Below are positions 2,748 to 42,249 of a stretch of 64,000 nucleotides of DNA, in pieces. Where the stretch lies: IMG/VR virus record IMGVR_UViG_3300042731_000990, positions 4,514 through 68,513 of that record, one strand, 5' to 3'. Position 1 is the stretch's first letter, and every line of letters starts with the position of its first letter. This stretch comes from a virus. Below the pieces are notes generated by a model that made no database searches, was not told the origin of the DNA, and saw only the letters and a program-made list of their open reading frames with translations. The position numbers and the translations under genes are program-made.

Positions 2748-5700
2748 ATGGCTAAGAAGAAGAATACATCTCCTGGTCTGGACCAGACGTCAATCTTTAA
2801 TAAAGGATTGATAAAAGACTTTTCAGATATTTTTACCCCTGAAGGTAGTTGGTCACATGCTCGTAATGCAGTTACTAATTCTGCTCAGGGTGACATGGGT
2901 GTCATTTCTAATGAGCCTAGTAATGTTCTATGTACTAAGGCACCTTATGATGTAATTGGTGCTATACATCTAGAAGATGACGAGTGGGTTATATATTCTA
3001 CAGATGATGTTAATAGTGAGATAGGTTTATTTAAAGAGAAGACATGTGAGTATACAAAGATTGTAAATGCTGCTTGTTTAAACTTTAATCGTGGTTATAT
3101 GATCACAGGTGCATTCAGAGAAAACTTTGATTGTACTAGACAGGTATATTGGGATGATGGTTATAATCCTTCTAGGACATTAAACATTGATGAGATCCCA
3201 TATAAAAAGACAGAAAGGATAGTAGACGGTTGTGTACAAGAAACACTTACAGATGAAATCGAATGTGAAAAACTTTTATTGGCTCCTATCTTTGAAGTAC
3301 CATGTATTGAACTTAAAAGAGGAGACAACGCTGGGACTCTTGATAATGGATCTTATCAAGCAGCAATTGCCTACTCAGTCAACGGACGAAGAGTAACAGA
3401 CTACATTGCATTATCTAATGTATGTGCTGTCTTTGATCATGATAATGACCTGGGTTCTTTAGAAGTTAGAATTACAGGCTTAGAAACAGACAGGTTTGAA
3501 GAATATGAACTTGTTATTATAGGTAATGTAGCAGCACAAGCTAATGCAAAAAGAATTGGTTTTTATAGTACCAATCAGAATGTAGTATTCTTAGATACTA
3601 TTGCTATTAGTTTACCTGCTGTACCGCTAGAAAATATACCGGTACTTAACCCTGCATATGAGAAGTCAGACAGAATGTTTGAAGTGGATGACTACTTGGT
3701 ACGTGTGGGTCTATATGAAAGATTTGATTTTAATTACCAGCCTTTAGCTAATAAGATAAAGACTGAGTGGGTAGCTGTAGCATATAAAGATGATTACTAT
3801 TATAACGGGGGTCAGAACGCTGGTTACATGCGTGATGAGCAGTATGCTTTCTTTATTAGATGGGTATACAAAACAGGAGAGAGATCTTTTTCATATCACA
3901 TACCTGGTAGAAAAGCTAATGCTGCTGATATATCTACTGTTGGTGGAGCTGATGTAATCTATCCATCAAAGAATAAAAAATGGCAGGTATACAATACAGC
4001 TAGTATTACAAGTACCACACAACAATCATTACAAGACAACGGTACTATCATTGCCAGAGGTAAGATGGGTTACTGGGAGTCTACAGAAAAATATCCTGAT
4101 AGAAACTCAGAACGTTGGGGTGAACTATGTGGTAAAAACATTAGACATCATAAGATGCCTGATGATAGAATTATTCCTAGACACACAGATGACGGTAAGA
4201 TTGTAATCATTGCTCCACAGTTTAGCAACATTGCACCACCATTAGATAACAATGGTAATGTTATTGAAGATGTAGTAGGATATGAGATCTTAAGAGGTTC
4301 TCGTCTTGGTAATAAAACTATTGTAGGTAAGGGTCTTATTAATAACATGGGTGAGTACACTGTACCGGGTAACAATGATGAGAATGAAAAGACTTTGTTT
4401 GTTAACTATCCATTTAATGATCTTAGAGAGGATGACTATTTAACCTCATTTTTTGTTAGAGGTGCTAGTTTACTTAATAATAGTGATTTAGGAACTGAGC
4501 GTGTAAGACCTTTTGATAGCTATAACCAAAAAAGATACTTTTCTTTTCACTCTCCTGAACTTTCTTTTTACAGAACTTTTTTGTCTGCACCAGAACTTAA
4601 GATTTATGGAGAAGCAACTGGTACAGCAAAAGGTACCTTTATAGAACCTAGCAAACATCCTAAGAATGTAATTATTTCTAATACAGCTGGTCTTATTTCT
4701 GTATTACTTGGTTTAGGATATTTAGATAGATACTTAAGGGGAAACAGAACATATACTATTCCAGGTGGAAATAGTTATGGTACGTTTACTACTTACTTGA
4801 ACACTCTAGCAAAGAATGTACCTTTTGCTAGTTACATTCCTGGTTTAGGTCAATATGCTGCTTTTGTAGGTAAAGCTACTACAACTCGTTTAGAGTCTAG
4901 TGACTATAATAATTTACCAGGCGCGTTGCGTAAGTTTATGTTTATTCCAGCATTAATAACTGGATTGTCTGAAGGTGCTGATATATTCTTACAGAGAATG
5001 TACGATATGTTACAGCCTAGACAACATGCATTACAACATGTGTCTCATGGTTTTTATAATAAGTTTAAACCTGCACAAGATGGTCAGACTAGACGTTTGA
5101 TTAAAGATTCTGTATATGCCAAACCTCATGTTCAACAGTTAAATTCTGATGTTACTGTAAATAACTTATTTAGAACGAGGACAGCTGTATTAGAATTAGG
5201 TAGAGATTTAGAAAACCCTAAAACTATTGATACATCAAGATATACTCTTAATGATATTGATAAAGATACTACATTATACTTAGGTGAAAGAGATCGTTTA
5301 TACAATCCTTATAAGAACTTTACAGATCAGATTAGTACTACAATTGCTTCTCATTACTGTGCTTTAAAAATAGATAATGAAAATCAGTATGGTCAGTTAT
5401 CCAGTGTAGTACAATTACCTACAGGTTGTTTAGATAAAGTAGTTGTGGGTAGTGTTAATCAAAGATATACATCTTCTATTGTATTTGGTGGTGATACATA
5501 CATTAATCGTTATACTGAGAAGAACACAATGCCGTTCTTTAATAACTGGTTAACTACTCAACCAGATGGTTTTGCATTTGATTATACAAACTATATTAAT
5601 GTTCCTTATCCTAAATACTGGATGAATTCAGAACAGTGGGATCTTGGAGACTTTTTCCAAGGTCTTGGTACAGGTTTAGGTAACTGGGCAAGTAATTTGT

Positions 5701-7487
5701 TTAGAAGAGATGAGAATGATGAACTAAGAGAATCTATTCCTGGTATACAAACTTTACCTTCTAATATGCATAATTTAGATATGCGTAGACACGCAGGTAC
5801 TTTGTTTACTCTTGGTGTAAGACACGGTTACATGTACTTGTTTAACTCTGGGGTAAGGGATTTTTATGTAGAGTCAGAAATTAATCTTGCTTACAGAGAT
5901 CATAAAGACAGACCAGAGACTAGACACTATGATAGTAAAGATTACACAGATTTAGATTCATTATTTGACATTGATATTATTACATCTGGTAATTACTACT
6001 TGTATGATTTTTCTTTAAGCAATAACACATTCCCTACGTTTAAATACCCTCATAGTATTTTACAAGCATCATACTACGATCCTACCGTAGCTGAAGAATG
6101 TTTTTCTTACAGACCTTACAAGATTATTTACAGCTTACCTAACAGAGATGGTAGTATTAAAGATCCGTGGATTGTATTCTTACCTAATAACTATAGAGAG
6201 TTTGGTAGTAAGCCTTCTAATATTAAGATGGCTGGTGATGGTAGTGCAATGATATTGTTTGAAAATGATTCTCCTGCTAGACTATTACCTCAAGATACAT
6301 TAAAGCTGGATCAAGGTACTAAGCTTAGTGTAGGTGATGGAGAGTTATTTAACAACCTTCAAGAGAATTTACTACGTACAGATGATGGTTATGAGTATGC
6401 AACGTGTCAAAGTGCATTTGGTGCAGCATCTACACCTGCTGGTATATTCTGGATTAGTTCTGATCAGGGTAAAATTTTCCAATACTCTAAAGGTATCAAT
6501 GAGATTTCTAGATTGAATATGAAGTGGTGGTTAAGTAAATACTTGCCATTCCAGATTGTACAGGACTTCCCAACTTTTAATCTAAGAGATAATACGGTTA
6601 TTGGTGCAGGTGTTACAACTATATACGATACTACAGAAGAGATAATATACTTTAGTAAAAAGGATTACAAGGTTAAGAAAGAGTTTGCAGCTAGATTAAT
6701 TTATGATAAGTTAGATAAGTTTGTATTAGACGGTGTGTCTCAAGTTAGACTGACAGACTCTAAGTATTTTGACAATGCTTCTTGGACTTTGAGTTATGAT
6801 ATTAAGAATAACTCTTGGATGTCATTCCATGATTGGCACCCTGATTTTGTTATTCCTGGTCAACAGCACTTCTTATCTGTTAAGTCCGGTAAGATTTATA
6901 AGCATAACAGTACATCAGAATCATTCTGTAACTTCTACGGTGTAGACTATCCGTTTGAAGTGGAGTTGTTCTCTGGTACAGGACAGATGGTGTCTACTGT
7001 ACGCAGTGTGGAATATCAACTGGAAACATATCAGTACAAGAATAATGGTACGGATGCACACCATGTATTAGACTTCAACTTTGATAGAGCTATTGTATAT
7101 AACTCTGAGCAAGTTTCTGGTTTACTTAAACTAAACTTGTCTCCTAAAAACAATGCTCCTGAAATATTAAGTTACCCAAAAACTAATACAAGTAGTATTG
7201 ATATTCTATACAGTAAGGAAGAAAACAAATACAGATTTAACCAGTTCTGGGATATTACAGATGACAGAGGTGAGTTTAGTTCACTAAGAAGAGCTATTTG
7301 GAATACGTCTCCAAGTGGATACATTAGAACACTAAACTCGTTTAATTTGGACTATACTAAAAACCCACATCAGCGTAAGAAATTTAGACACTATGTGAAC
7401 AGAGTTCTTTTGAGAAGAAATATTTCTGGTAGAAACCACATGATGTTAAACATTGCTACGATGAAGTTACAGCTATCACAACGATGA
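2748..7487 (+). CDS. Tail stabilisation/muzzle protein (P22 gp10-like)
   Basis: 1579 aa, beta-rich. N-terminal 'FNKGLIKD...HARNA', 'VYWDDGYNPSR', 'GYMRDEQYAF', and C-terminal 'WTLSY...WMSFHDW' are typical of this crAss family. Confidence 0.75.
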   Translation: MAKKKNTSPGLDQTSIFNKGLIKDFSDIFTPEGSWSHARNAVTNSAQGDMGVISNEPSNVLCTKAPYDVIGAIHLEDDEWVIYSTDDVNSEIGLFKEKTCEYTKIVNAACLNFNRGYMITGAFRENFDCTRQVYWDDGYNPSRTLNIDEIPYKKTERIVDGCVQETLTDEIECEKLLLAPIFEVPCIELKRGDNAGTLDNGSYQAAIAYSVNGRRVTDYIALSNVCAVFDHDNDLGSLEVRITGLETDRFEEYELVIIGNVAAQANAKRIGFYSTNQNVVFLDTIAISLPAVPLENIPVLNPAYEKSDRMFEVDDYLVRVGLYERFDFNYQPLANKIKTEWVAVAYKDDYYYNGGQNAGYMRDEQYAFFIRWVYKTGERSFSYHIPGRKANAADISTVGGADVIYPSKNKKWQVYNTASITSTTQQSLQDNGTIIARGKMGYWESTEKYPDRNSERWGELCGKNIRHHKMPDDRIIPRHTDDGKIVIIAPQFSNIAPPLDNNGNVIEDVVGYEILRGSRLGNKTIVGKGLINNMGEYTVPGNNDENEKTLFVNYPFNDLREDDYLTSFFVRGASLLNNSDLGTERVRPFDSYNQKRYFSFHSPELSFYRTFLSAPELKIYGEATGTAKGTFIEPSKHPKNVIISNTAGLISVLLGLGYLDRYLRGNRTYTIPGGNSYGTFTTYLNTLAKNVPFASYIPGLGQYAAFVGKATTTRLESSDYNNLPGALRKFMFIPALITGLSEGADIFLQRMYDMLQPRQHALQHVSHGFYNKFKPAQDGQTRRLIKDSVYAKPHVQQLNSDVTVNNLFRTRTAVLELGRDLENPKTIDTSRYTLNDIDKDTTLYLGERDRLYNPYKNFTDQISTTIASHYCALKIDNENQYGQLSSVVQLPTGCLDKVVVGSVNQRYTSSIVFGGDTYINRYTEKNTMPFFNNWLTTQPDGFAFDYTNYINVPYPKYWMNSEQWDLGDFFQGLGTGLGNWASNLFRRDENDELRESIPGIQTLPSNMHNLDMRRHAGTLFTLGVRHGYMYLFNSGVRDFYVESEINLAYRDHKDRPETRHYDSKDYTDLDSLFDIDIITSGNYYLYDFSLSNNTFPTFKYPHSILQASYYDPTVAEECFSYRPYKIIYSLPNRDGSIKDPWIVFLPNNYREFGSKPSNIKMAGDGSAMILFENDSPARLLPQDTLKLDQGTKLSVGDGELFNNLQENLLRTDDGYEYATCQSAFGAASTPAGIFWISSDQGKIFQYSKGINEISRLNMKWWLSKYLPFQIVQDFPTFNLRDNTVIGAGVTTIYDTTEEIIYFSKKDYKVKKEFAARLIYDKLDKFVLDGVSQVRLTDSKYFDNASWTLSYDIKNNSWMSFHDWHPDFVIPGQQHFLSVKSGKIYKHNSTSESFCNFYGVDYPFEVELFSGTGQMVSTVRSVEYQLETYQYKNNGTDAHHVLDFNFDRAIVYNSEQVSGLLKLNLSPKNNAPEILSYPKTNTSSIDILYSKEENKYRFNQFWDITDDRGEFSSLRRAIWNTSPSGYIRTLNSFNLDYTKNPHQRKKFRHYVNRVLLRRNISGRNHMMLNIATMKLQLSQR

Positions 7488-10400
7488 GAAAGAAGTTTGA
7501 CTACAGATTTGATAAAGGATTACCTGGTGGAGCTAACCAAGTAAAAGGTAGAGTAAAAGGTTCTGTTACACAGACAGGGTACAAAAGAAACTCTCCTGAC
7601 GTTAATAATGATTTTAATATTATTCCGTCTCCTTATATCACAATGGTAGGTGTAGACTTTCCTGTATACGGTGAAGATAACTTAGGTAACGGTCAGATGA
7701 TGTACCCTGGTAATGAGTATATGTTTCCAGGTGATTACGTTACAGAATTACCAGCATTTGGTAAGGGTGGTCTTAAGCAATGGTTTGCTGAGAAGTGGGT
7801 AGATGTAAAGACAGGTAAAGAGTGTGGTAGATCTGGTAAAGATAAAAACGGTAGACCTTATCCTGCATGTAGACCAAGTAGAAGAGTAAATGAAACTACT
7901 CCTAAGACTACATCAGAAATGTCAGCATCTGAAAAAGCTAAGTTTAAAAGAAAGAAGACTTCAGGTAAACGTATTGATTATAATCATAAACGTGCACAAT
8001 ATGGTGGTAGACAAGGAGATGTATTTCAAGAAGTGGATACTTATATCAAACCAGGTCAAAGAATTCAACCTAACTGGGCTCAGTCTCCAGTAAGTGTAAC
8101 TAACTATACTTTTGGTAAAAACTTAGTAGATGATGAGCCTAGATTTTCATTAGGTCTTCAAGGTACAGATATTTTAGATGAAATTAAATATCGTGCTGAC
8201 GCTATAGGTAGTATAGGTATAGGTGTAGGAAATCGTAAGGGTAAAAGTTTTAGACCTGCAGGTGAAAATTTAAGAGCAGGTCTTAGAGGTCAAGCTAGCT
8301 GGCAGGGTGTACCAGGTAATGCTATTGAAAACCTGTTTGGTAGACGCAGTGGTCTTGACTGGAGAGGAAGCTTTGAAGGAGAAGCAGGTCTTGCATATGC
8401 TAATGGTGCAGTAAGACCTTATATGAGTGTTATGCCTCAAACCAATGTTTTTTTAAATGATAATCTATCTCTTGGTATAGGTTATGAAATGAGAGGTAGA
8501 TATGATAAAAACTTTGACGAGCCTGTTTATGGTAATACTGACACAGGTAGCATAGCTCCTATAAGTCAAAGAGATGGTTACTCTGGTATGGGTAGAGGTG
8601 CTGCTAGATTTTCATTAAACTATGATTTAGGTAATGGTGACTTTATTGAAGGTTATTATGCTAAACCTGATCCTTTATATCAAGGTAGTATGCCAGGTGT
8701 ACGTGAAATGTTAGCATTAGAATCTGAACAACCTAGATTTGGTGTAAGACTTAGAAAGAGTTTTAAACAAGGTGGTCAACTACCTAAAGCTCAACAAGGT
8801 AAAAAGATTGCAGATGTAGCCAATCAAATGGTATTAAATGGTGAAGACGGTACTCGTCCACCTTTAAATATTATTGATAATATGGTTGCTCTATTTGATG
8901 AAGACGGTGTATGTAGAGATAACACTTGTGTTAATGTTGTAAAAGATATTTATAATAGAGCCGGTTATAATGTAATACCAGAAGGTGTATACAATAACAG
9001 AGCTTTTAAAGATGATTATGATTCTTATGGGTTACAATTGGTAGCTCCTCAAAATAAAGGCAGATATATTTTAGATGATTTACAGCCTGGAGATATTATA
9101 CAATATCGTCATGATTCAAATAGTGGAGGTGCTTTAGGAAAAGAGGGTTATCCTTTCCATTTAGGTGTTTATACTGAGAATGGTCAATACGTTAGTGATG
9201 GTTCTAAAGATGATCCTATTAAAAAGCAAAGTGTTTTTTATTATGATGATGGTACTTCTAAACCTCCTTTTGATGTATTTAGATTAAAACAATTAGGAGG
9301 TTCAATTCCTAAAGCTCAGGGTGGTATTTATACTGTACGACCTGGTGATACTTTTAACGGTATTGCAAATAGTACAGGTATTGGTCAAGAAGCTTTACGC
9401 GTAGCTAACCCAGGTATAGACTATAATAAAATACAAGTTGGTCAAGTTTTAGCAGCTCCTGGTTTGATGGGTCCACAAACCCCTCCTGTAGAAGCTCAGA
9501 CTAAAACAAAGAAAAAGAAAACAACAGGTAACTTATCCTTTAATGATTTGCTGTATAGACAGGCATATCAAGAATCTAAGTTTAATCCTAATGCTAAATC
9601 TCCTAAAGGTTATAAAGGATTTACACAAATAGGTTCCGGTATAATGCAGGACTACGCAAAAGCTACTGGTGATACACGTACTAATCCTTATGATCCTGAT
9701 TATGCTATTGCTGTACAGAAATGGGCAATGGATAAGTATTTAAATAATACAGGTTGGATTAAAGGTTCCGATAAAGTAAAACAAGCTAAAGCTCTTGCAG
9801 CATATAACTGGGGTCCGGGTAATACATTAAAGTATTTAAATGCTCAGAAAGAAAAAGGTACTGATATTTACGCTGATGATTTAAGTTGGGTATCTGGTAT
9901 GCCTAAAGAAACTAGAGATTACATAGATCATATTTTAGGACTTGAATACCCTACTAAAGATAAATGGGAAGCTAATTTCCAACGTGATACTACAGACTCT
10001 CCGTATAGTAAATACTATAAACAACAAGGTGGTGAAACTTTATACGATTACGTAAAAGGTTTAGGTTACAGTCCTACATTTGCGAATAGAAAAAAGATAT
10101 TTGCTGACTACTTTGATACAGAGTACACAGGTACTGCTAAACAAAATATAGAGCTTCTAAATCAGTTAAAGTCTGGTAAATTAAATATCAATGAATACGC
10201 ACAACGTGCTGATGTTCAACCTGTTAGAGAAGCTGTAATACAACAACCTGCACTTGCTCCACAACCTTCTGTAAGTAGTGAAGCGGTTAGAGGTACAGTT
10301 ATGAATCCAACACCTGCACCAGAAACTACAGCAGAACCTGTAAGTAGTTATAGAGGTGCAACATCCTTAACTACGGATGATGATTTACAAAAAATAAGAG

Positions 10401-36616: not shown

Positions 36617-36646
36617 AAAAGAGGGAGCACAAAGCTCCCTTTTTTT
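36615..36646. terminator. Bidirectional intrinsic terminator
   Basis: A-run, AGGGAGC-acaaa-GCTCCCT, T-run, between convergent ORFs. Confidence 0.85.
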
Positions 36647-36824
36647 ATACCAATACTCCAATTTGAAAGAATAATAAACCTATCACGAGTAAGTGATGTT
36701 GGTCTGGTTCTTCTTGTTCTTCTGATTTAAATACATAAGCTTTATTTATTTTAAAGCCTAATAGAACTTCATCCTTTGGAAGGACATTCACGGAAACTCT
36801 TGTCCCTAGTGAGATTGAGTACAT
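36645..36824 (-). CDS. Small hypothetical protein (59 aa, not in ORF track)
   Basis: MYSISLGTRVSVNVLPKDEVLLGF...LLVIGLLFFQIGVLV*; ends exactly at the terminator; A/T-rich leader. Confidence 0.55.
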   Translation of the reverse strand: MYSISLGTRVSVNVLPKDEVLLGFKINKAYVFKSEEQEEPDQHHLLVIGLLFFQIGVLV

Positions 36825-36959: not shown

Positions 36960-37211
36960 ATGATGTTTAAAAAATTAAAATCAAAGCTTATGGCGTTTGC
37001 TGATATCTTTAAAGATGAAAATGATTACAATGAAAAGACTATTATTGGTTTTATGTCATTTGCTGTTATGGTAATTTTTGCTGTAGTAGATCTTGTTACT
37101 GGATACGTAGGTAAAGACCTCGTAATTAACGAAGGGATCTATAACAGTTTTGTTATAATCACTCTAGGTAGTTTTGGTATTGCAGGCCTAGAAAAATTTG
37201 CTAAGAAATGA
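36960..37211 (+). CDS. Putative holin (2 TM)
   Basis: 83 aa; two hydrophobic helices; basic C-terminus; overlaps the next gene. Confidence 0.55.
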   Translation: MMFKKLKSKLMAFADIFKDENDYNEKTIIGFMSFAVMVIFAVVDLVTGYVGKDLVINEGIYNSFVIITLGSFGIAGLEKFAKK

Positions 37212-37678
37212 AATTAGAAGTAGTAAGAATCAGCAGTCAAGAGGACAGCACAAACGGAATTTTATTTGATGTTACAGAAGGAAGAAAGTTTTTATGCTAC
37301 ACTCTTGAAGATGAGTATAGGGAAACAAAAGTTATGTCTGAAACACGAATTCCTGCTGGCACATATAAAATCACTCTTAGAACGGTAGGAGGTCACCATG
37401 AAAGATATACTAAGAAATATGGTGAAATGCACAAGGGCATGTTATGGGTACGTGATGTGCCTAATTTTAAGTGGATCCTTATTCATACTGGTAATACTGA
37501 TGAACACACTGCTGGGTGCCTCCTTGTTGGTGATAGTCAACAAAACAATGCTATCAAGGCTGATGGTTTTGTTGGTTCAAGTACTCAGGCGTATAAAAGA
37601 ATTTATCCTCCAATTGCTGCAGCTTTGGAAGCAGGAGAAGAAGTAACCATTACTTATATAGATTACGATACGGTATAA
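37208..37678 (+). CDS. DUF5675-like putative endolysin
   Basis: 'CYTLED...RIPAGTY...VPNF..ILIHTGN...TAGCLLVG' signature. Confidence 0.75.
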   Translation: MKLEVVRISSQEDSTNGILFDVTEGRKFLCYTLEDEYRETKVMSETRIPAGTYKITLRTVGGHHERYTKKYGEMHKGMLWVRDVPNFKWILIHTGNTDEHTAGCLLVGDSQQNNAIKADGFVGSSTQAYKRIYPPIAAALEAGEEVTITYIDYDTV

Positions 37679-37696
37679 ACGAAATAAACAAAACCA

Positions 37697-37831
37697 ATGG
37701 CAAAACACATTAACAATGCTAAGTTGACAACCTCTAAGAAACGTAGACCAGGGGTGCATGCTAAAACTAAAACTAGTAAAAGTAAAAATTCAGCTAATTA
37801 CAAAAAGAAGTATAAGGGACAAGGACGATGA
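37697..37831 (+). CDS. Small highly basic peptide (44 aa, not in ORF track)
   Basis: MAKHINNAKLTTSKKRRPGVHAKTKTSKSKNSANYKKKYKGQGR*; A-rich leader; ATGA overlap with the next ORF. Confidence 0.7.
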   Translation: MAKHINNAKLTTSKKRRPGVHAKTKTSKSKNSANYKKKYKGQGR

Positions 37832-38040
37832 CAAAGAAGAGTTTACTTGATAGAGATAACATAGAGTTATTTATTCTTACACCAGAGGAGGATCAAAGAA
37901 TATCTGATCTCCTTACTTGGGATGAGACTATACAAGAGCCAGAGGACTTGTTTCTTACACAAGAATTTAAATCTCTATCTCTATGGAAAAGATTTTATCT
38001 AAGATTAAAAGTAGCCTTTTGGGTTACGTTGAGTCTATAA
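37828..38040 (+). CDS. Hypothetical protein (70 aa)
   Basis: ATGA-coupled to the previous ORF; acidic N-terminus, basic/hydrophobic C-terminus. Confidence 0.55.
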   Translation: MTKKSLLDRDNIELFILTPEEDQRISDLLTWDETIQEPEDLFLTQEFKSLSLWKRFYLRLKVAFWVTLSL

Positions 38041-38225
38041 CAGACTGGACAAGCACACGTATGGTTTATTTATTAATGTCAGCTATGTTGTTTATAGCAT
38101 GGTTGTTTAATTCATGGAACCTTGTGGGGTTTGTAGTAGTCATGTTAAATGTAAGTGTTTGGACTAGATTCTGTCCTAGTAAGTGGATCTTTGAAAAGCT
38201 AGGCTTTCAAAAAACAGATCTGTAA
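37983..38225 (+). CDS. Small 2-TM membrane protein, DUF2892/YgaP-TM-like
   Basis: Two TM helices followed by 'TRFCPSKWIFEKLG'; TAATG overlap with the kinase gene. Confidence 0.6.
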   Translation: MEKILSKIKSSLLGYVESITDWTSTRMVYLLMSAMLFIAWLFNSWNLVGFVVVMLNVSVWTRFCPSKWIFEKLGFQKTDL

Positions 38226-39127
38226 TGAGTGTTTTAGATGGTATATCTATCAGAAGTAGAATATGTCTACTCTGTGCTACTTTGATTATGCTGACTTTTT
38301 TTGTCTTTAAAACACTAGTAGTATTTCGTTATATACATCACAGTACTTTTACTCATTACTTTGAGTGGTTATCTGTTATTGCCTTTATGCCTCCTTTCTT
38401 TGTAGTTGTCAAAGAATTTTTAGAAAACAAGGAGATCATAAAACAAGATCTTGGTAAGAAGAATATATATCTAGAACATGCAGCAAAAATCATTAGACAT
38501 GATATGCACAGTGGTATCAATACTTACTTACCAAGAGGGATTAAGTCCCTTAACCGCAGACTTACTGAAGAAAATATTAAAGAACTCAAAATTGGATCAC
38601 CCCTCAAATTAATAGCAGATGGTTTACACCATGCTCAAAAAGTATATGCAGGAGTTTATGAGTTTACAAACTTAGTTAAAGAGAACGCACAGTTAAATAC
38701 CAAACCGCATAATATTAAAGAGATATTAGAAGACTACCTAAGACTAACAGCATATAAAAATCAAGTTGTCTTATCGGACAACTTACCACAAGGTTTAGAA
38801 GTAAATGAAGCTTTGTTTTGTACAGCTTTAGATAACTTTATAAGAAACGGTTTAAAGTATAATGACGCTGGTACAAAGTATGTCAAGATATACTTAGAGG
38901 CTGATTACCACAAAGGTTCTTTTATATGTGTAGAAGATAATGGCAGGGGTTTAACAGGTGAAGAGTTTATGGAACTCAGTAAACCTTATGCTAGGAAAGA
39001 AGGTCAGAAAGAATCTGGCACAGGATTGGGATTAAATATTTCTATTGAGATTTTAAGAGAGCATGGTTTTATAGTACATGCTGATAAGATAAAAGAAGGT
39101 GGTACAAAAATTTATATAAAGATTTAG
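38225..39127 (+). CDS. Membrane-bound sensor histidine kinase
   Basis: Two TM helices; H box 'IIRHDMHS'; N box 'DNFIRNGLKY'; G1 'VEDNGRG'; G2 'GTGLGL'; terminal 'GGTK'. Confidence 0.92.
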   Translation: MSVLDGISIRSRICLLCATLIMLTFFVFKTLVVFRYIHHSTFTHYFEWLSVIAFMPPFFVVVKEFLENKEIIKQDLGKKNIYLEHAAKIIRHDMHSGINTYLPRGIKSLNRRLTEENIKELKIGSPLKLIADGLHHAQKVYAGVYEFTNLVKENAQLNTKPHNIKEILEDYLRLTAYKNQVVLSDNLPQGLEVNEALFCTALDNFIRNGLKYNDAGTKYVKIYLEADYHKGSFICVEDNGRGLTGEEFMELSKPYARKEGQKESGTGLGLNISIEILREHGFIVHADKIKEGGTKIYIKI

Positions 39128-39130
39128 GAG

Positions 39131-39568
39131 ATGATTGATACATTGATGCTGATAGATGATGAGAATCTATTTCACTTGGTATTTGAAGATGCCTGCAGCA
39201 TGTTAGATATAGCTTTATCTATTGAGGCTTTAGATAGCTCTGATGAAGCAGATAAGAAGTTTAAAGCTTGGTTCCCTGATGATCCTGATCATGAAAGACC
39301 ACAGTGTGTCTTTGTTGATCTTAACATAATTGGATCTTCATACGATGGTATAGAAATGATCCGTAAAATAAATGAAGATTATGGTAACGGATGTGTTATT
39401 GGTATTATTTCTAGTAGTAGTGATCAGTCAGAGATTGAAAAAGCAAAAACAGTAGGAGCTCAGTTTTGGATTATTAAGTCTGATGACATTGAACCAAGAC
39501 TAGAAGAGTTTAAAGAAGATTATGAGGGGTATATAAATAAGACAAACCCTTTTAAAGTATATAGATAA
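39131..39568 (+). CDS. Single-domain response regulator (receiver only)
   Basis: 'LIDDE' acidic pocket; phosphoacceptor 'FVDLN'; 'DGIE'; 'IISSS'; conserved Lys in 'IIKS'; no output domain. Confidence 0.9.
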   Translation: MIDTLMLIDDENLFHLVFEDACSMLDIALSIEALDSSDEADKKFKAWFPDDPDHERPQCVFVDLNIIGSSYDGIEMIRKINEDYGNGCVIGIISSSSDQSEIEKAKTVGAQFWIIKSDDIEPRLEEFKEDYEGYINKTNPFKVYR

Positions 39569-39717
39569 TGAAGAATGTAATAAGGTTTGCTCTAGTGGTA
39601 TATGCAATAATTGCACTTACCAGTTGTAGTAAAAGTTATGAAACAGGATATGTAACTAAAGGTAATCCTGATAACAGTTACCTGGATACATGTGAAATAT
39701 ACTGCTGCGGTGATTAG
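39568..39717 (+). CDS. Small lipoprotein (49 aa, not in ORF track)
   Basis: MKNVIRFALVVYAIIALTSC lipobox; C-terminal CEIYCC; TAATG overlap with the receiver gene. Confidence 0.65.
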   Translation: MKNVIRFALVVYAIIALTSCSKSYETGYVTKGNPDNSYLDTCEIYCCGD

Positions 39718-40276
39718 TTCTAAAGACACCGTAAAGGAAGCTATACTTAAAGCCAAGTCTAAGAAAGTTTTTATAGAGGGAAACTTTGTTAAGCTGTTGG
39801 CTAAGACTTCTGATCCTGAAGTTAAAGAGTATATCCAAGAGTGTAAGAAGAAAGATCTTGCACAAAGACGTAAGCGTTTAGATATTACTAAGCAGGTCCA
39901 AGCTCAGAATAGAGAACTTGAAGAAGCTGCTGTGGTAAACAAAGCTCTACTTATTGACCTTGAAAATAAAATGGAGGAACTTGAAATCTCTAAGAAAGAA
40001 GCTGAAGGTTTACGTGATGAAGCTTTAAATGATTTAGAAGTGATGCAGAAGAAGACTCAGTTTGAGCTTATTAGCATTATAGTAAAATTAGCTCTTGCTG
40101 TTATAGTTGGAGTAGGTGTTACAACATCTGTTCTTTATATGTTTGTTTTATACCAGGGTTATGATTCTAAGATAATAGAGAGTACCTGGTCTAATTTATT
40201 TGGTATATTGTTAACTAATTCATTCAGTATAGTTGGTACCATTATGGGTGTCAAGTATGCTACAGAAAAAGAGTAA
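39692..40276 (+). CDS. Coiled-coil protein with two C-terminal TM helices (start may be GTG 39710)
   Basis: Long K/E/Q heptad region followed by two hydrophobic helices. Confidence 0.75.
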   Translation: MKYTAAVISSKDTVKEAILKAKSKKVFIEGNFVKLLAKTSDPEVKEYIQECKKKDLAQRRKRLDITKQVQAQNRELEEAAVVNKALLIDLENKMEELEISKKEAEGLRDEALNDLEVMQKKTQFELISIIVKLALAVIVGVGVTTSVLYMFVLYQGYDSKIIESTWSNLFGILLTNSFSIVGTIMGVKYATEKE

Positions 40277-40278
40277 TT

Positions 40279-40965
40279 ATGGCAGCAGCAAGATCTCATG
40301 ATGATGAGGTGTTTAAAGCAAAAAGAAGACCTAAGCGTCCAATTAAATTTAATATAACCCTTAATGAAGAGCAAAAGCATGCAAAAGCAGAGATACTTGA
40401 AAACCCAGTCACTGTCTTACAGGGTATGGCAGGAAGTGGAAAAACTTTGGTGGCAGTGCAAGTTGGGTTGGATCTCTTATTTACAAAGCAAATTGAGAAG
40501 ATTATTATTACCAGACCAACAGTTGCCAAAGAAGACATTGGTTTCCTTCCTGGAGATATCAAGGAAAAGATGGATCCGTGGCTTGCTCCTATATACCATA
40601 ACTTGTACTTACTATATGACAAAGTTAAGATTGACAAGTGTGTTGAAGAAGGCTCTATAGAGATTGTACCATTTGCTTTTATGCGTGGTAGAACTTTTAC
40701 TAATGCTGTAATTATTCTAGATGAAGCACAGAATGTTACCATGAATCAAATGGAGATGATGTTAGGACGTCTGGGTAAAGGTAGTAAAATGGTTGTGTGT
40801 GGTGATAAAGCTCAGATTGACTTACGTAATAAGAAAGATTCAGGCTTTGGTTTCTTATACACTTTAGAAGCACAGGTTAAAGGGTTTAAAGTGATTACTC
40901 TTAAAACAAATCACAGACACGAAATAGTAGAACCTATACTTAAGGTATACGAAGATTATAGATAA
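40279..40965 (+). CDS. phoH: PhoH-family ATPase
   Basis: GMAGSGKT; 'IIITRP'; 'IGFLPGD'; 'FMRGRTF'; 'DEAQN'; 'GDKAQID'. Confidence 0.95.
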   Translation: MAAARSHDDEVFKAKRRPKRPIKFNITLNEEQKHAKAEILENPVTVLQGMAGSGKTLVAVQVGLDLLFTKQIEKIIITRPTVAKEDIGFLPGDIKEKMDPWLAPIYHNLYLLYDKVKIDKCVEEGSIEIVPFAFMRGRTFTNAVIILDEAQNVTMNQMEMMLGRLGKGSKMVVCGDKAQIDLRNKKDSGFGFLYTLEAQVKGFKVITLKTNHRHEIVEPILKVYEDYR

Positions 40966-41120
40966 TGAATTGGCAATTAATGATTACAGCACACTGGCCT
41001 CATGATAGATTTGCATTAGGCTGGGAAGTACTGAACCCCACAACAGAAGTAAATTGGACTACTATTCAAGTATTCTTATTTATATTTACTATCAGGCTAG
41101 ATATATTTCCTGAAGAATAA
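40965..41120 (+). CDS. Small hypothetical protein (51 aa, not in ORF track)
   Basis: MNWQLMITAHWPHDRFALGWE...; TAATG overlap with phoH. Confidence 0.65.
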   Translation: MNWQLMITAHWPHDRFALGWEVLNPTTEVNWTTIQVFLFIFTIRLDIFPEE

Positions 41121-41167
41121 CGGTAAGTGAGGGAGAACTTAATCTCCCCCTCTCTTATCCCTTACCG
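41121..41167. terminator. Stem-loop at the end of the + strand module
   Basis: CGGTAAG...CTTACCG enclosing GGGAGA...TCTCCC; no strong U tract. Confidence 0.4.
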
Positions 41168-41890: not shown

Positions 41891-42041
41891 GACTTTCTAT
41901 GATTTGTACAACTTTAGACCAATAGGTATCCCCAAAAGGAGCCATAGCAATTATCTGTCTTACTTGTGTAAGTGCCTGATCTCTAGTCTTATAACGATCT
42001 ATAAACTGTTTGGCTTTGAGTTTTGGATTTGGATATCCCAT
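41880..42041 (-). CDS. Small hypothetical protein (53 aa, not in ORF track)
   Basis: MGYPNPKLKAKQFIDRY...YWSKVVQIIESHDY*; overlaps the start of the next - strand gene. Confidence 0.55.
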   Translation of the reverse strand: MGYPNPKLKAKQFIDRYKTRDQALTQVRQIIAMAPFGDTYWSKVVQIIESHDY

Positions 42042-42050
42042 GATTTTACA

Positions 42051-42066
42051 GTATCTTTATAGTGTA
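42051..42066 (+). promoter_or_regulatory. Putative phage late-promoter motif GTATCTTTATAGTGTA
   Basis: Precedes the isolated + strand lipoprotein gene. Confidence 0.55.
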
Positions 42067-42087
42067 GTAACATTAAATTTACAAATT

Positions 42088-42249
42088 ATGCGGTACATAT
42101 TTATCATACTTTTAGCATTATTTGTAACAGGTTGTGCAACATCTAGCACATCATCACAAGTTACGTATGAACCTGTTACTTATACAAACTGTAATGACAC
42201 TAATTGCGATTATTACGCAACAGTGCACCACCACATTAGCATTCAGTAA
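42088..42249 (+). CDS. Small lipoprotein (53 aa)
   Basis: MRYIFIILLALFVTGC lipobox; CxxxxC and HHH in the mature part; hairpin ATAGGGTC-tga-GCCCTAT follows. Confidence 0.7.
   Translation: MRYIFIILLALFVTGCATSSTSSQVTYEPVTYTNCNDTNCDYYATVHHHISIQ

Follow-up and report, generated by a model that had tools for sequence, protein, structure and literature searches.

A mainly viral trio of histidine kinase, stand-alone receiver and membrane hairpin protein, often found beside phage lysis genes

A 64,000-nucleotide stretch of the IMG/VR record IMGVR_UViG_3300042731_000990 (positions 4,514 to 68,513; "the window" below means this whole stretch) encodes a two-component signalling pair followed closely by a coiled-coil membrane protein, and these three genes are the subject of this report. 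The source is a 68.5-kb viral record from an uncultured marine phage, with a completeness estimate of 58%. GC content is even along the whole window, PHROG matches to virion proteins and to a DNA polymerase are present, and the nearest cultured phages are distant (DNA polymerase about 32% identical). On the plus strand, the interval 37983-40965 holds genes for a YgaP-like protein, a histidine kinase of 300 aa (38225-39127), a single-domain response regulator of 145 aa that consists of a receiver only (39131-39568), a 49-aa open reading frame (ORF), a 194-aa protein with a coiled coil and a transmembrane (TM) hairpin (39692-40276, from a GTG start at 39692, or from a GTG at 39710 that matches relatives), and a PhoH-like ATPase. 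All belong to the same unit as the genes for a holin-like protein and a DUF5675 protein.

That unit occupies plus-strand positions 36960-41120, where twelve tightly packed ORFs were counted (11 of them itemised here), from the holin-like gene to a 51-aa ORF. Its upstream limit is set by a clean intrinsic terminator, a GC stem with a T-run at 36622-36648 (plus strand), which closes the gene for a preceding 1506-aa structural protein. After the last plus-strand ORF, in a convergent intergenic region, stands a terminator-like hairpin with a weak T-run (41131-41148, plus strand). No terminator-like site was found from the end of the DUF5675 gene to position 41131, in agreement with an earlier note on this DNA that had seen no evident terminator after the putative holin/endolysin; a single weak intragenic terminator-like match lies at 37435-37462. 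Gene junctions along the unit read, in order, ATGA, ATGA, TAATG, TAGGAGATG, TAATG, TAATTATG and TAATG. The TAATG junctions join the YgaP-like gene to the kinase, the regulator to the 49-aa ORF, and PhoH to the 51-aa ORF; TAGGAGATG joins kinase to regulator, and TAATTATG joins the coiled-coil gene to PhoH. Every ORF of the earlier note is present, and intact, where it was placed, and the junctions are as it described them.

By motifs and predicted fold, the kinase is a class I enzyme with a canonical core, a HisKA-type DHp domain followed by HATPase_c. Pfam HATPase_c matches at 4.1e-12 (47 bits against a cut-off of 26.4), and a sequence-profile search of the PDB ranks HK853 first (1.4e-12). The AlphaFold2 (AF2) model, with a mean predicted local distance difference test score (pLDDT) of 84.3 and a predicted TM-score (pTM) of 0.68, shows TM1 at residues 9-33, a TM2 that continues unbroken into DHp helix 1 (41-112), DHp helix 2 at 124-150, and then an alpha/beta ATP-binding domain. 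Foldseek returns 297 PDB matches to this model at E <= 0.001, the top ones being HK853 (3.8e-10), CpxA and ZraS, around 1e-10 over about 240 columns. Sixteen aligned kinases from viral loci are invariant in the loop and TM2 (IHHSTFTHYFEWLSVI.FMPPFF), in the H-box region (YLEHA.KIIRHDMHSGINTY.PRGI), and in what we take, from the family consensus, to be the N, G1 and G2 boxes. Among 15 kinases reaching down to 37% identity, the residues that never vary include H92-D93, S96-G97-I98-N99, N204/N208, D238-N-G-x-G242 and G265-x-G-L-G269. At 37-39% identity, H85 is replaced by Y and H95 by N, which leaves H92 as the only invariant histidine of the H-box region. Because H92-D93 is invariant while H85 and H95 vary, H92 (codon at 38498-38500, plus strand) is likely to be the phospho-accepting residue. 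The H box that the earlier note called intact reads RHDMHS (RHDMHSGIN), and H92 is the only one of its histidines that holds among distant relatives.

The sensing part of the kinase behaves differently from its core. In the AF2 model the window kinase has two TM helices joined by a very short, conserved outer loop, with no large extracytoplasmic sensor domain. An exhaustive profile search of 1.84 billion representative sequences found 100 proteins at E <= 1e-30, many of them 400-840 aa long and matched in the cytoplasmic core only, and ten family members that were scanned have N-termini of 2-TM, PAS, GAF-PAS or multi-PAS type. A PAS insert stands between TM2 and DHp in five of the 16 aligned viral kinases; the kinase of locus L011 (loci fetched for comparison carry L numbers) has a different PAS. 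The sister clade of proteins P0137 and P0107 has another outer loop beside the same YgaP-like neighbour. Since N-termini, PAS inserts and outer loops vary around one core, the core is evidently constant and the sensor exchangeable. A universal sensor in the His-rich outer loop was considered and rejected: the loop is invariant in 16/16 first-clade kinases, but EPTLFLAKFGW-type loops take its place in the P0137/P0107 clade. When P0199, a distant 2-TM relative, was used to scan viral contigs, no relatives were found. None of the records in the annotated phage collection spans at least 80% of the kinase, all 24 matches are less than 60% identical, and at the DNA level PhoH is the sole match there to the window. 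Two loci carry split genes, through sequencing error or possibly decay: in L011 (4271-5535) the kinase is split by a frameshift, and in L026 (5950-7650) all three genes of the trio are split. Locus L021 has two family kinase paralogues (3923-5563 and 6287-7510) upstream of one receiver, one of them 2-TM with a double PAS and the other with a signal peptide, and a GyrB/Toprim topoisomerase gene downstream.

The regulator matches Pfam Response_reg over residues 6-117 (1.3e-07, 32.2 bits against a cut-off of 30.2), and stands at a distance from receivers of solved structure: the only natural solved relative in a PDB profile search is the two-component response regulator 3ilh (1.5e-5). Residues D9, D10, D63, S94 (with S95 and S96) and K116 are invariant in two alignments, one of 17 sequences and one of 14 that reaches down to 61% identity; by their position in the receiver consensus, we take them to be the acidic pair, the phosphorylated Asp, the Thr/Ser and the Lys of the active site. 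D63 (codon at 39317-39319, plus strand, in the motif FVDLNI) is thus likely to be the phospho-accepting aspartate. Conservation of the receiver is high on all faces of the protein, with 91% mean column identity and 61-68% identity to distant loci. There is no output domain, the receiver domain being the sole Pfam match in its 145 residues. Lacking a DNA-binding domain, the regulator must therefore act, if it acts, through protein-protein contact. By membership the two proteins form a predicted class-I two-component pair with a stand-alone receiver. The earlier note had proposed a complete phage-borne kinase/regulator pair with its catalytic residues, the regulator having no output domain, and the invariance of H92, of the boxes and of D9/D10/D63/S94/K116 bears this out, as does the Pfam assignment. 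The pair is very probably functional.

The third protein, here called the hairpin protein, is modelled by AF2 (mean pLDDT 78.4) as a small N-terminal helical domain, then one continuous helix (42-155) that forms a cytoplasmic coiled coil and runs into TM1, a four-residue turn, and TM2 (160-192). Its most conserved parts are TM2 (STWSN.FGILLTN.FSI.GTIMGVKYA) and an N-terminal polar stripe of R59, R62, L63, T66, K67, Q70 and N73. Two relatives shed light on its place in the system. The trio is retained in locus L023, where the kinase is a soluble PAS protein. In locus L024, the N-domain of the hairpin protein (42% identity, E 1.3e-11) is fused to HisKA (25.4 bits) and HATPase_c (5e-20), which replace the hairpin. 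The soluble kinase of L023 and the fusion of L024 together argue that the hairpin protein is coupled to the receiver/kinase core and not to a membrane sensor. An N-domain that can be transferred in this way, to drive either a membrane hairpin or a second kinase, would suit an input domain for recognising the receiver in its phosphorylated state. The L024 fusion (7079-8128) is preceded by a triple-PAS kinase and a receiver of the same type, an arrangement that looks like a cascade from kinase to receiver to second kinase. Prediction of a complex between the regulator and residues 1-122 of the hairpin protein gave a median score of 0.32, and one control reached 0.46, scores that speak neither for binding nor against it. 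No longer proteins fused to the hairpin N-domain scored in a search for them, a search that by its own account gives weak evidence. A two-component spanin formed by the 49-aa ORF and the coiled-coil protein was rejected: both TM helices of the latter are C-terminal, there is no N-terminal signal, and the 49-aa ORF is poorly conserved.

Comparison with other viral contigs separates the three genes from their neighbours. A kinase-anchored first scan gave 19 loci at 70-85% identity, a second set gave 20, and a hairpin-anchored scan gave 80 (the best 80 of 542 matching viral stretches), ten of them on contigs that the first set had already supplied. Each of the 19 first-set loci preserves the order YgaP-like, kinase, receiver, coiled-coil protein, as far as its contig extends. 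The loci are mutually related, and their counts are not counts of independent events. In the hairpin-anchored loci, the receiver lies directly upstream in 78/78 that have at least 500 nt of room and the kinase upstream in 73/73 that have at least 1600 nt, while the YgaP-like gene is found in 28/65, the ~37-aa ORF described below as small37 in 22/65, and PhoH in 5/80. These numbers identify the kinase, receiver and hairpin protein as the core, in obligate three-gene linkage, and the other genes as accessories of particular lineages. Recurrence in viral contigs, which the earlier note had put forward as a check, is thus widespread and the trio keeps its synteny, but the full cassette of five to six genes does not, since PhoH, the 49-aa ORF and the YgaP-like gene fall outside the core. 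As for the coiled-coil membrane protein as the regulator's target, the suggestion stands in so far as the protein is an obligate genomic partner; that it is the receiver's partner or output is slightly more likely than not. All four genes of the first-set order are under purifying selection, with a median ratio of nonsynonymous to synonymous rates (dN/dS) of 0.079 for the kinase, 0.048 for the receiver, 0.164 for the hairpin protein and 0.183 for the YgaP-like protein, values obtained with dS near saturation and, for example, 8/36 usable pairs for the kinase and 25/66 for the regulator.

More than 100 distinct viral contigs carry the module, which lies there among virion, terminase and lysis genes. 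A search of cellular genomes with back-translated motifs, one genome for each of 185,579 species, found no relative of the sensor motifs and only six loci with the core motifs, all in metagenome-assembled genomes (MAGs) from five phyla, with the trio kept in all six. L022 is a phage-like contig of 60-71% GC in which a virion structural protein adjoins the trio, and L025 and L026 carry fibre-like genes, as judged from their ORF translations. L023 is ambiguous (PrkA, a D12 methylase and a PHROG of unknown function are nearby). L024, which is Bacteroidota-like, looks truly cellular because T9SS-sorted (type IX secretion system) surface proteins and an HTH_34/PadR regulator surround the trio; among 301 genomes of its class, its N-domain occurs in one, the L024 genome itself. 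From these searches the trio is mainly viral, kept together in what are, by their matching stretches, hundreds of phages. The number of viral contigs, the near-absence from cellular genomes and the uniform GC confirm the earlier view of the genes as phage-borne, and not as a bacterial contaminant or a chimera.

What the trio acts on is suggested by where it lies. In the window it follows an 83-aa holin-like membrane protein (36960-37211, plus strand), so called from its position, and a DUF5675 protein in the endolysin slot (37208-37678, plus strand; Pfam 1.2e-26). The 83-aa protein matches no lysis-annotated Pfam or PHROG family at E <= 0.1, and position is what speaks for a lysis role; in other phages its family adjoins PG_binding_1/Amidase_2 endolysins. 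The DUF5675 protein is a candidate cell-wall hydrolase because of its slot after the holin-like gene and a weak match to the Tlde1 domain (0.0055). Lysis genes are adjacent in 15/20 kinase-anchored loci of the first set and 20/20 of the second (35/40 together). First-set arrangements include holin-like plus DUF5675 genes upstream, holin-like plus CHAP/NlpC-like genes downstream, and holin-like plus PG_binding_1/Amidase_2 plus Phage_holin_4_1 genes either downstream or upstream. The usual order in the second clade is endolysin, small37, Phage_holin_4_1, YgaP-like, kinase, receiver, hairpin protein; with Phage_holin_4_1 between small37 and the YgaP-like gene, the signalling genes there are interleaved with holin genes. 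Altogether, lysis genes and module occur in at least six arrangements (upstream, downstream, interleaved), with at least three endolysin-slot proteins (DUF5675, PG_binding_1 plus Amidase_2, CHAP/NlpC-like). The link to lysis is frequent, but clearly not universal.

These observations suggest a mechanism of the following kind. The membrane kinase would read a membrane or envelope cue and autophosphorylate on H92 (in relatives with PAS or GAF-PAS inserts the cue would instead be cytoplasmic). The phosphate would pass to D63 of the stand-alone receiver, which once phosphorylated would dock on the N-terminal domain of the hairpin protein. A signal running along the coiled coil would then alter the action of the hairpin in the membrane, and lysis timing would shift as a consequence, through holin- or antiholin-like action or through membrane energisation. 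A shift in lysis timing is the most likely consequence because the module so often lies inside or beside holin/endolysin cassettes. We infer the phosphotransfer, the receiver-to-hairpin contact and the lysis output from motifs, models and gene order, and regard a receiver-to-hairpin relay affecting lysis timing as the best-supported mechanism, with lysis timing as the leading reading, at a probability of roughly 0.45. Taken by itself, lysis timing as the output falls somewhat short of an even chance. Doubtful, if more specific, is a version in which a phage-autonomous phosphorelay has the phosphorylated receiver directly gate the membrane hairpin, making a phosphorylation-controlled holin/antiholin-like device whose cue is set by the swapped sensor and whose N-domain is a new receiver-docking input domain; such an input domain would explain why the cellular relative wires its N-domain to a second kinase.

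Several findings weigh against the relay to lysis. Pfam HisKA does not match the window kinase at E <= 0.1, and the DHp domain is therefore divergent. For the hairpin protein, neither Pfam nor PHROG gives a match to a holin, an antiholin or any other family, and Foldseek with its model finds nothing significant in the PDB (best E 2.7). In the hairpin-anchored sample, which is less biased, recognised lysis genes lie within 1.5 kb in 36/80 loci and in 14/41 that are well flanked, the latter a lower bound with a lysis reference set of 12 proteins. Many of the remaining hairpin-anchored loci sit among virion/capsid, tail-fibre and terminase genes, where small membrane proteins of unknown family still flank the module. 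The six MAG loci have one weak holin-like match between them, about 4 kb away. The mutual relatedness of the loci, mentioned above, counts on the same side.

Two rival explanations are live. According to the first, which has a low but appreciable probability, the phage kinase, the receiver or both plug into host two-component networks and reprogramme host physiology, for example the phosphate-starvation or envelope-stress responses. The receiver could draw phosphate from host kinases as a sink or decoy, or host regulators could be substrates of the phage kinase, with the hairpin protein as an anchor or co-sensor. A receiver that has no output domain and is conserved on every face would fit several partners, possibly a conserved host one; PhoH lies 3' of the module in the window's lineage, and many loci are away from recognised lysis genes. 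Adjacency to PhoH is nevertheless confined to the five loci counted above. The trio also occurs in phages ranging from about 33% to more than 60% GC, hence in very different hosts, and a host-specific target is hard to reconcile with a receiver so conserved. Obligate linkage to a phage-encoded partner (78/78) points instead to an internal circuit.

The second, of low probability, is a membrane or envelope surveillance role apart from lysis timing, in which the system would detect superinfection or damage to the envelope and use the hairpin protein to change the inner membrane. It might block incoming DNA, or hold or dissipate the membrane potential, and would then be a superinfection-exclusion or infection-maintenance device. 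The very short conserved outer loop of the 2-TM kinase suits such a role, as do the small membrane proteins that are always near (the YgaP-like protein, a ~53-aa TM protein upstream, a ~110-aa C-terminal-TM protein downstream) and the location of the module outside lysis cassettes in many phages. However, the variety of sensors (2-TM, PAS, GAF-PAS, fully soluble) means that the cue is not always at the envelope, and the module is repeatedly interleaved with holin genes.

Very unlikely is a peptide communication between phages, an arbitrium- or agr-like timing of lysis with small37 as the secreted signal, the YgaP-like protein as its processing or export partner and the 2-TM kinase as receptor. 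The ~37-aa ORF is indeed upstream in 17/20 first-set and 18/20 second-set loci, and the kinase has no large extracytoplasmic sensor domain, but most hairpin-anchored loci have neither small37 nor the YgaP-like gene, and small37, read directly, shows neither a signal peptide nor an export motif. Where small37 differs between loci the kinase loop stays the same, and the loop changes in the clade that keeps the same YgaP-like protein; thus receptor and ligand do not co-vary. In the second clade, a holin gene comes between small37 and the module. A bacterial operon captured by chance or mis-assembled, with no phage function, is scarcely credible: the contig is metagenomic with about 58% estimated completeness, and the sources that name the kinase at all go no further than KdpD-like or "signal transduction histidine kinase," but the module recurs in more than 100 distinct viral contigs amid virion, terminase and lysis genes, is almost absent from the cellular genomes, is under strong purifying selection, and lies in a window of uniform GC.

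Lysis timing sets phage fitness and burst size, and is known to be controlled by holin clocks and by antiholins such as T4 RI. The bacterial kinase LytS has multiple TM segments and belongs to another family, and LytR acts on transcription through LytTR-type DNA binding. Neither the phage kinase nor the phage regulator has a Pfam match to LytS/LytR-type families; the phage receiver, unlike LytR, carries no DNA-binding domain, and the two systems show no homology. The likeness is one of theme: in LytSR with LrgAB/CidAB, too, two-component signalling is connected with holin/antiholin-like membrane proteins and with the membrane's electrical state (PMC4830213). Lysis inhibition in phage T4 works through the holin T and the antiholins RI and RIII and makes lysis timing dependent on a signal (PMC11413866, PMC8385771). 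Like the function proposed for the trio, it is a phage-encoded, sensed and post-translational control exerted on membrane lysis proteins. A periplasmic antiholin inhibits the T4 holin directly, with no phosphorylation, whereas the trio would use a kinase/receiver relay, exchangeable sensors and a membrane hairpin; the two are unrelated in sequence or fold, and the trio's link to lysis is positional only.

Pelagiphages of the HTVC023P type carry histidine kinases in curli (type VIII secretion system, T8SS) clusters, where they precede CsgF/CsgG/CsgA-type genes and FecR (PMC9599517). These too are histidine kinases of uncultured marine phages conserved beside a defined set of genes. The passages on these kinases mention no cognate receiver or hairpin protein. 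The closest relative in both sequence and fold is cellular, the Thermotoga maritima pair HK853-RR468 (PDB 3dge, 6azr), which shares the DHp hairpin of four-helix-bundle type with its H-D motif, the Bergerat ATP-binding domain with N/G1/G2 boxes, and a stand-alone CheY-like receiver with a full acidic pocket. The phage pair differs from it in being near-absent from cellular genomes, in a divergent H box (RHDMHSGIN) to which Pfam HisKA gives no score, and in its constant linkage to a third, undescribed coiled-coil/TM-hairpin protein. A literature search, with subscription journals and supplementary files outside its reach, found no description of the kinase/receiver/hairpin module.

If the relay to lysis timing is correct, a kinase-based, signal-dependent input with exchangeable sensors would be a new layer of lysis control in hundreds of uncultured marine phages. 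Many environmental phages would then time the killing of their hosts by sensed conditions, which bears on models of marine viral mortality. The path from receiver to membrane hairpin would also be a new type of two-component output, in a compact three-gene system. Should the output be something other than lysis, an obligate and mainly viral trio of kinase, receiver and hairpin protein would still be an undescribed signalling unit.

The remaining genes of the unit belong to particular lineages. The 80-aa 2-TM protein with an FCPSKW motif (37983-38225, plus strand) is weakly YgaP-like: the YgaP-like TM family (PF11127, DUF2892) scores 16.1 bits against a cut-off of 25.3 (E 0.012). Eight of its 15 homologues match YgaP-like_TM at E <= 0.1 (best 2.3e-05) and a C-P-S motif is conserved, the usual length in relatives being 62 aa. 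The earlier note had counted this DUF2892-like protein as part of the signalling cassette, as it had a Cys-rich lipoprotein and PhoH, and none of the three keeps that place. The YgaP-like gene is a lineage accessory, as the 28/65 count indicates. The 49-aa ORF (39568-39717, plus strand), with a signal peptide and an LTSC lipobox, is found in only three other contigs, and the lipobox is seen in the window alone, its Cys being missing from the L001 and L005 homologues. PhoH (40279-40965, plus strand) is itself a firm assignment (Pfam PF02562, 218.4 bits, 9.4e-65; phrog_170, 2.2e-68). Together with the holin-like/DUF5675 genes it flanks the module in the window's order only in L004, L006, L007 and L008. 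PhoH as a component of the signalling system was accordingly rejected, and it is best seen as a co-transcribed neighbour in the window's lineage. The 51-aa ORF 3' of PhoH (40965-41120, plus strand) is conserved in the same lineage.

Upstream of the YgaP-like gene, a 70-aa ORF (37828-38040, plus strand) has as its C-terminal half the conserved sequence of about 37 aa here called small37, which in other phages lies upstream of the module or of a holin. It is preceded by a very basic, Lys/Arg-rich ORF of 44 aa (37697-37831, plus strand) that is conserved in 11 other fetched loci; L003 and L055 have basic proteins of about 98 aa and similar composition upstream of the module. Where a lineage lacks the YgaP-like gene, a single-TM protein of about 53 aa with the motif ISIGYTAQRWY lies directly upstream of the kinase (L055, 3183-3344; L068, 2918-3157; L075, 3180-3338), and a C-terminal-TM protein of about 110 aa overlaps the 3' end of the hairpin gene (L068, 5345-5671; L075, 5527-5871). 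Neither of these TM proteins matches a PHROG family. A DUF5675 protein in the endolysin slot, following the 83-aa holin-like gene, is found not only in the window (37208-37678) but also in L011 (2399-3543), L032, L035 and L041-L043. A gene for a 569-aa protein resembling ribonucleotide reductase (RNR) stands a few genes upstream of the lysis/signalling block in L010, L011, L012, L016-L019 and L032, and the order RNR, lysis, relay recurs in several lineages. Finally, the convergent region of the window contains a plus-strand ORF of 79 aa (42010-42249) with a lipoprotein-like signal (…LLALFVTGCATSS…).

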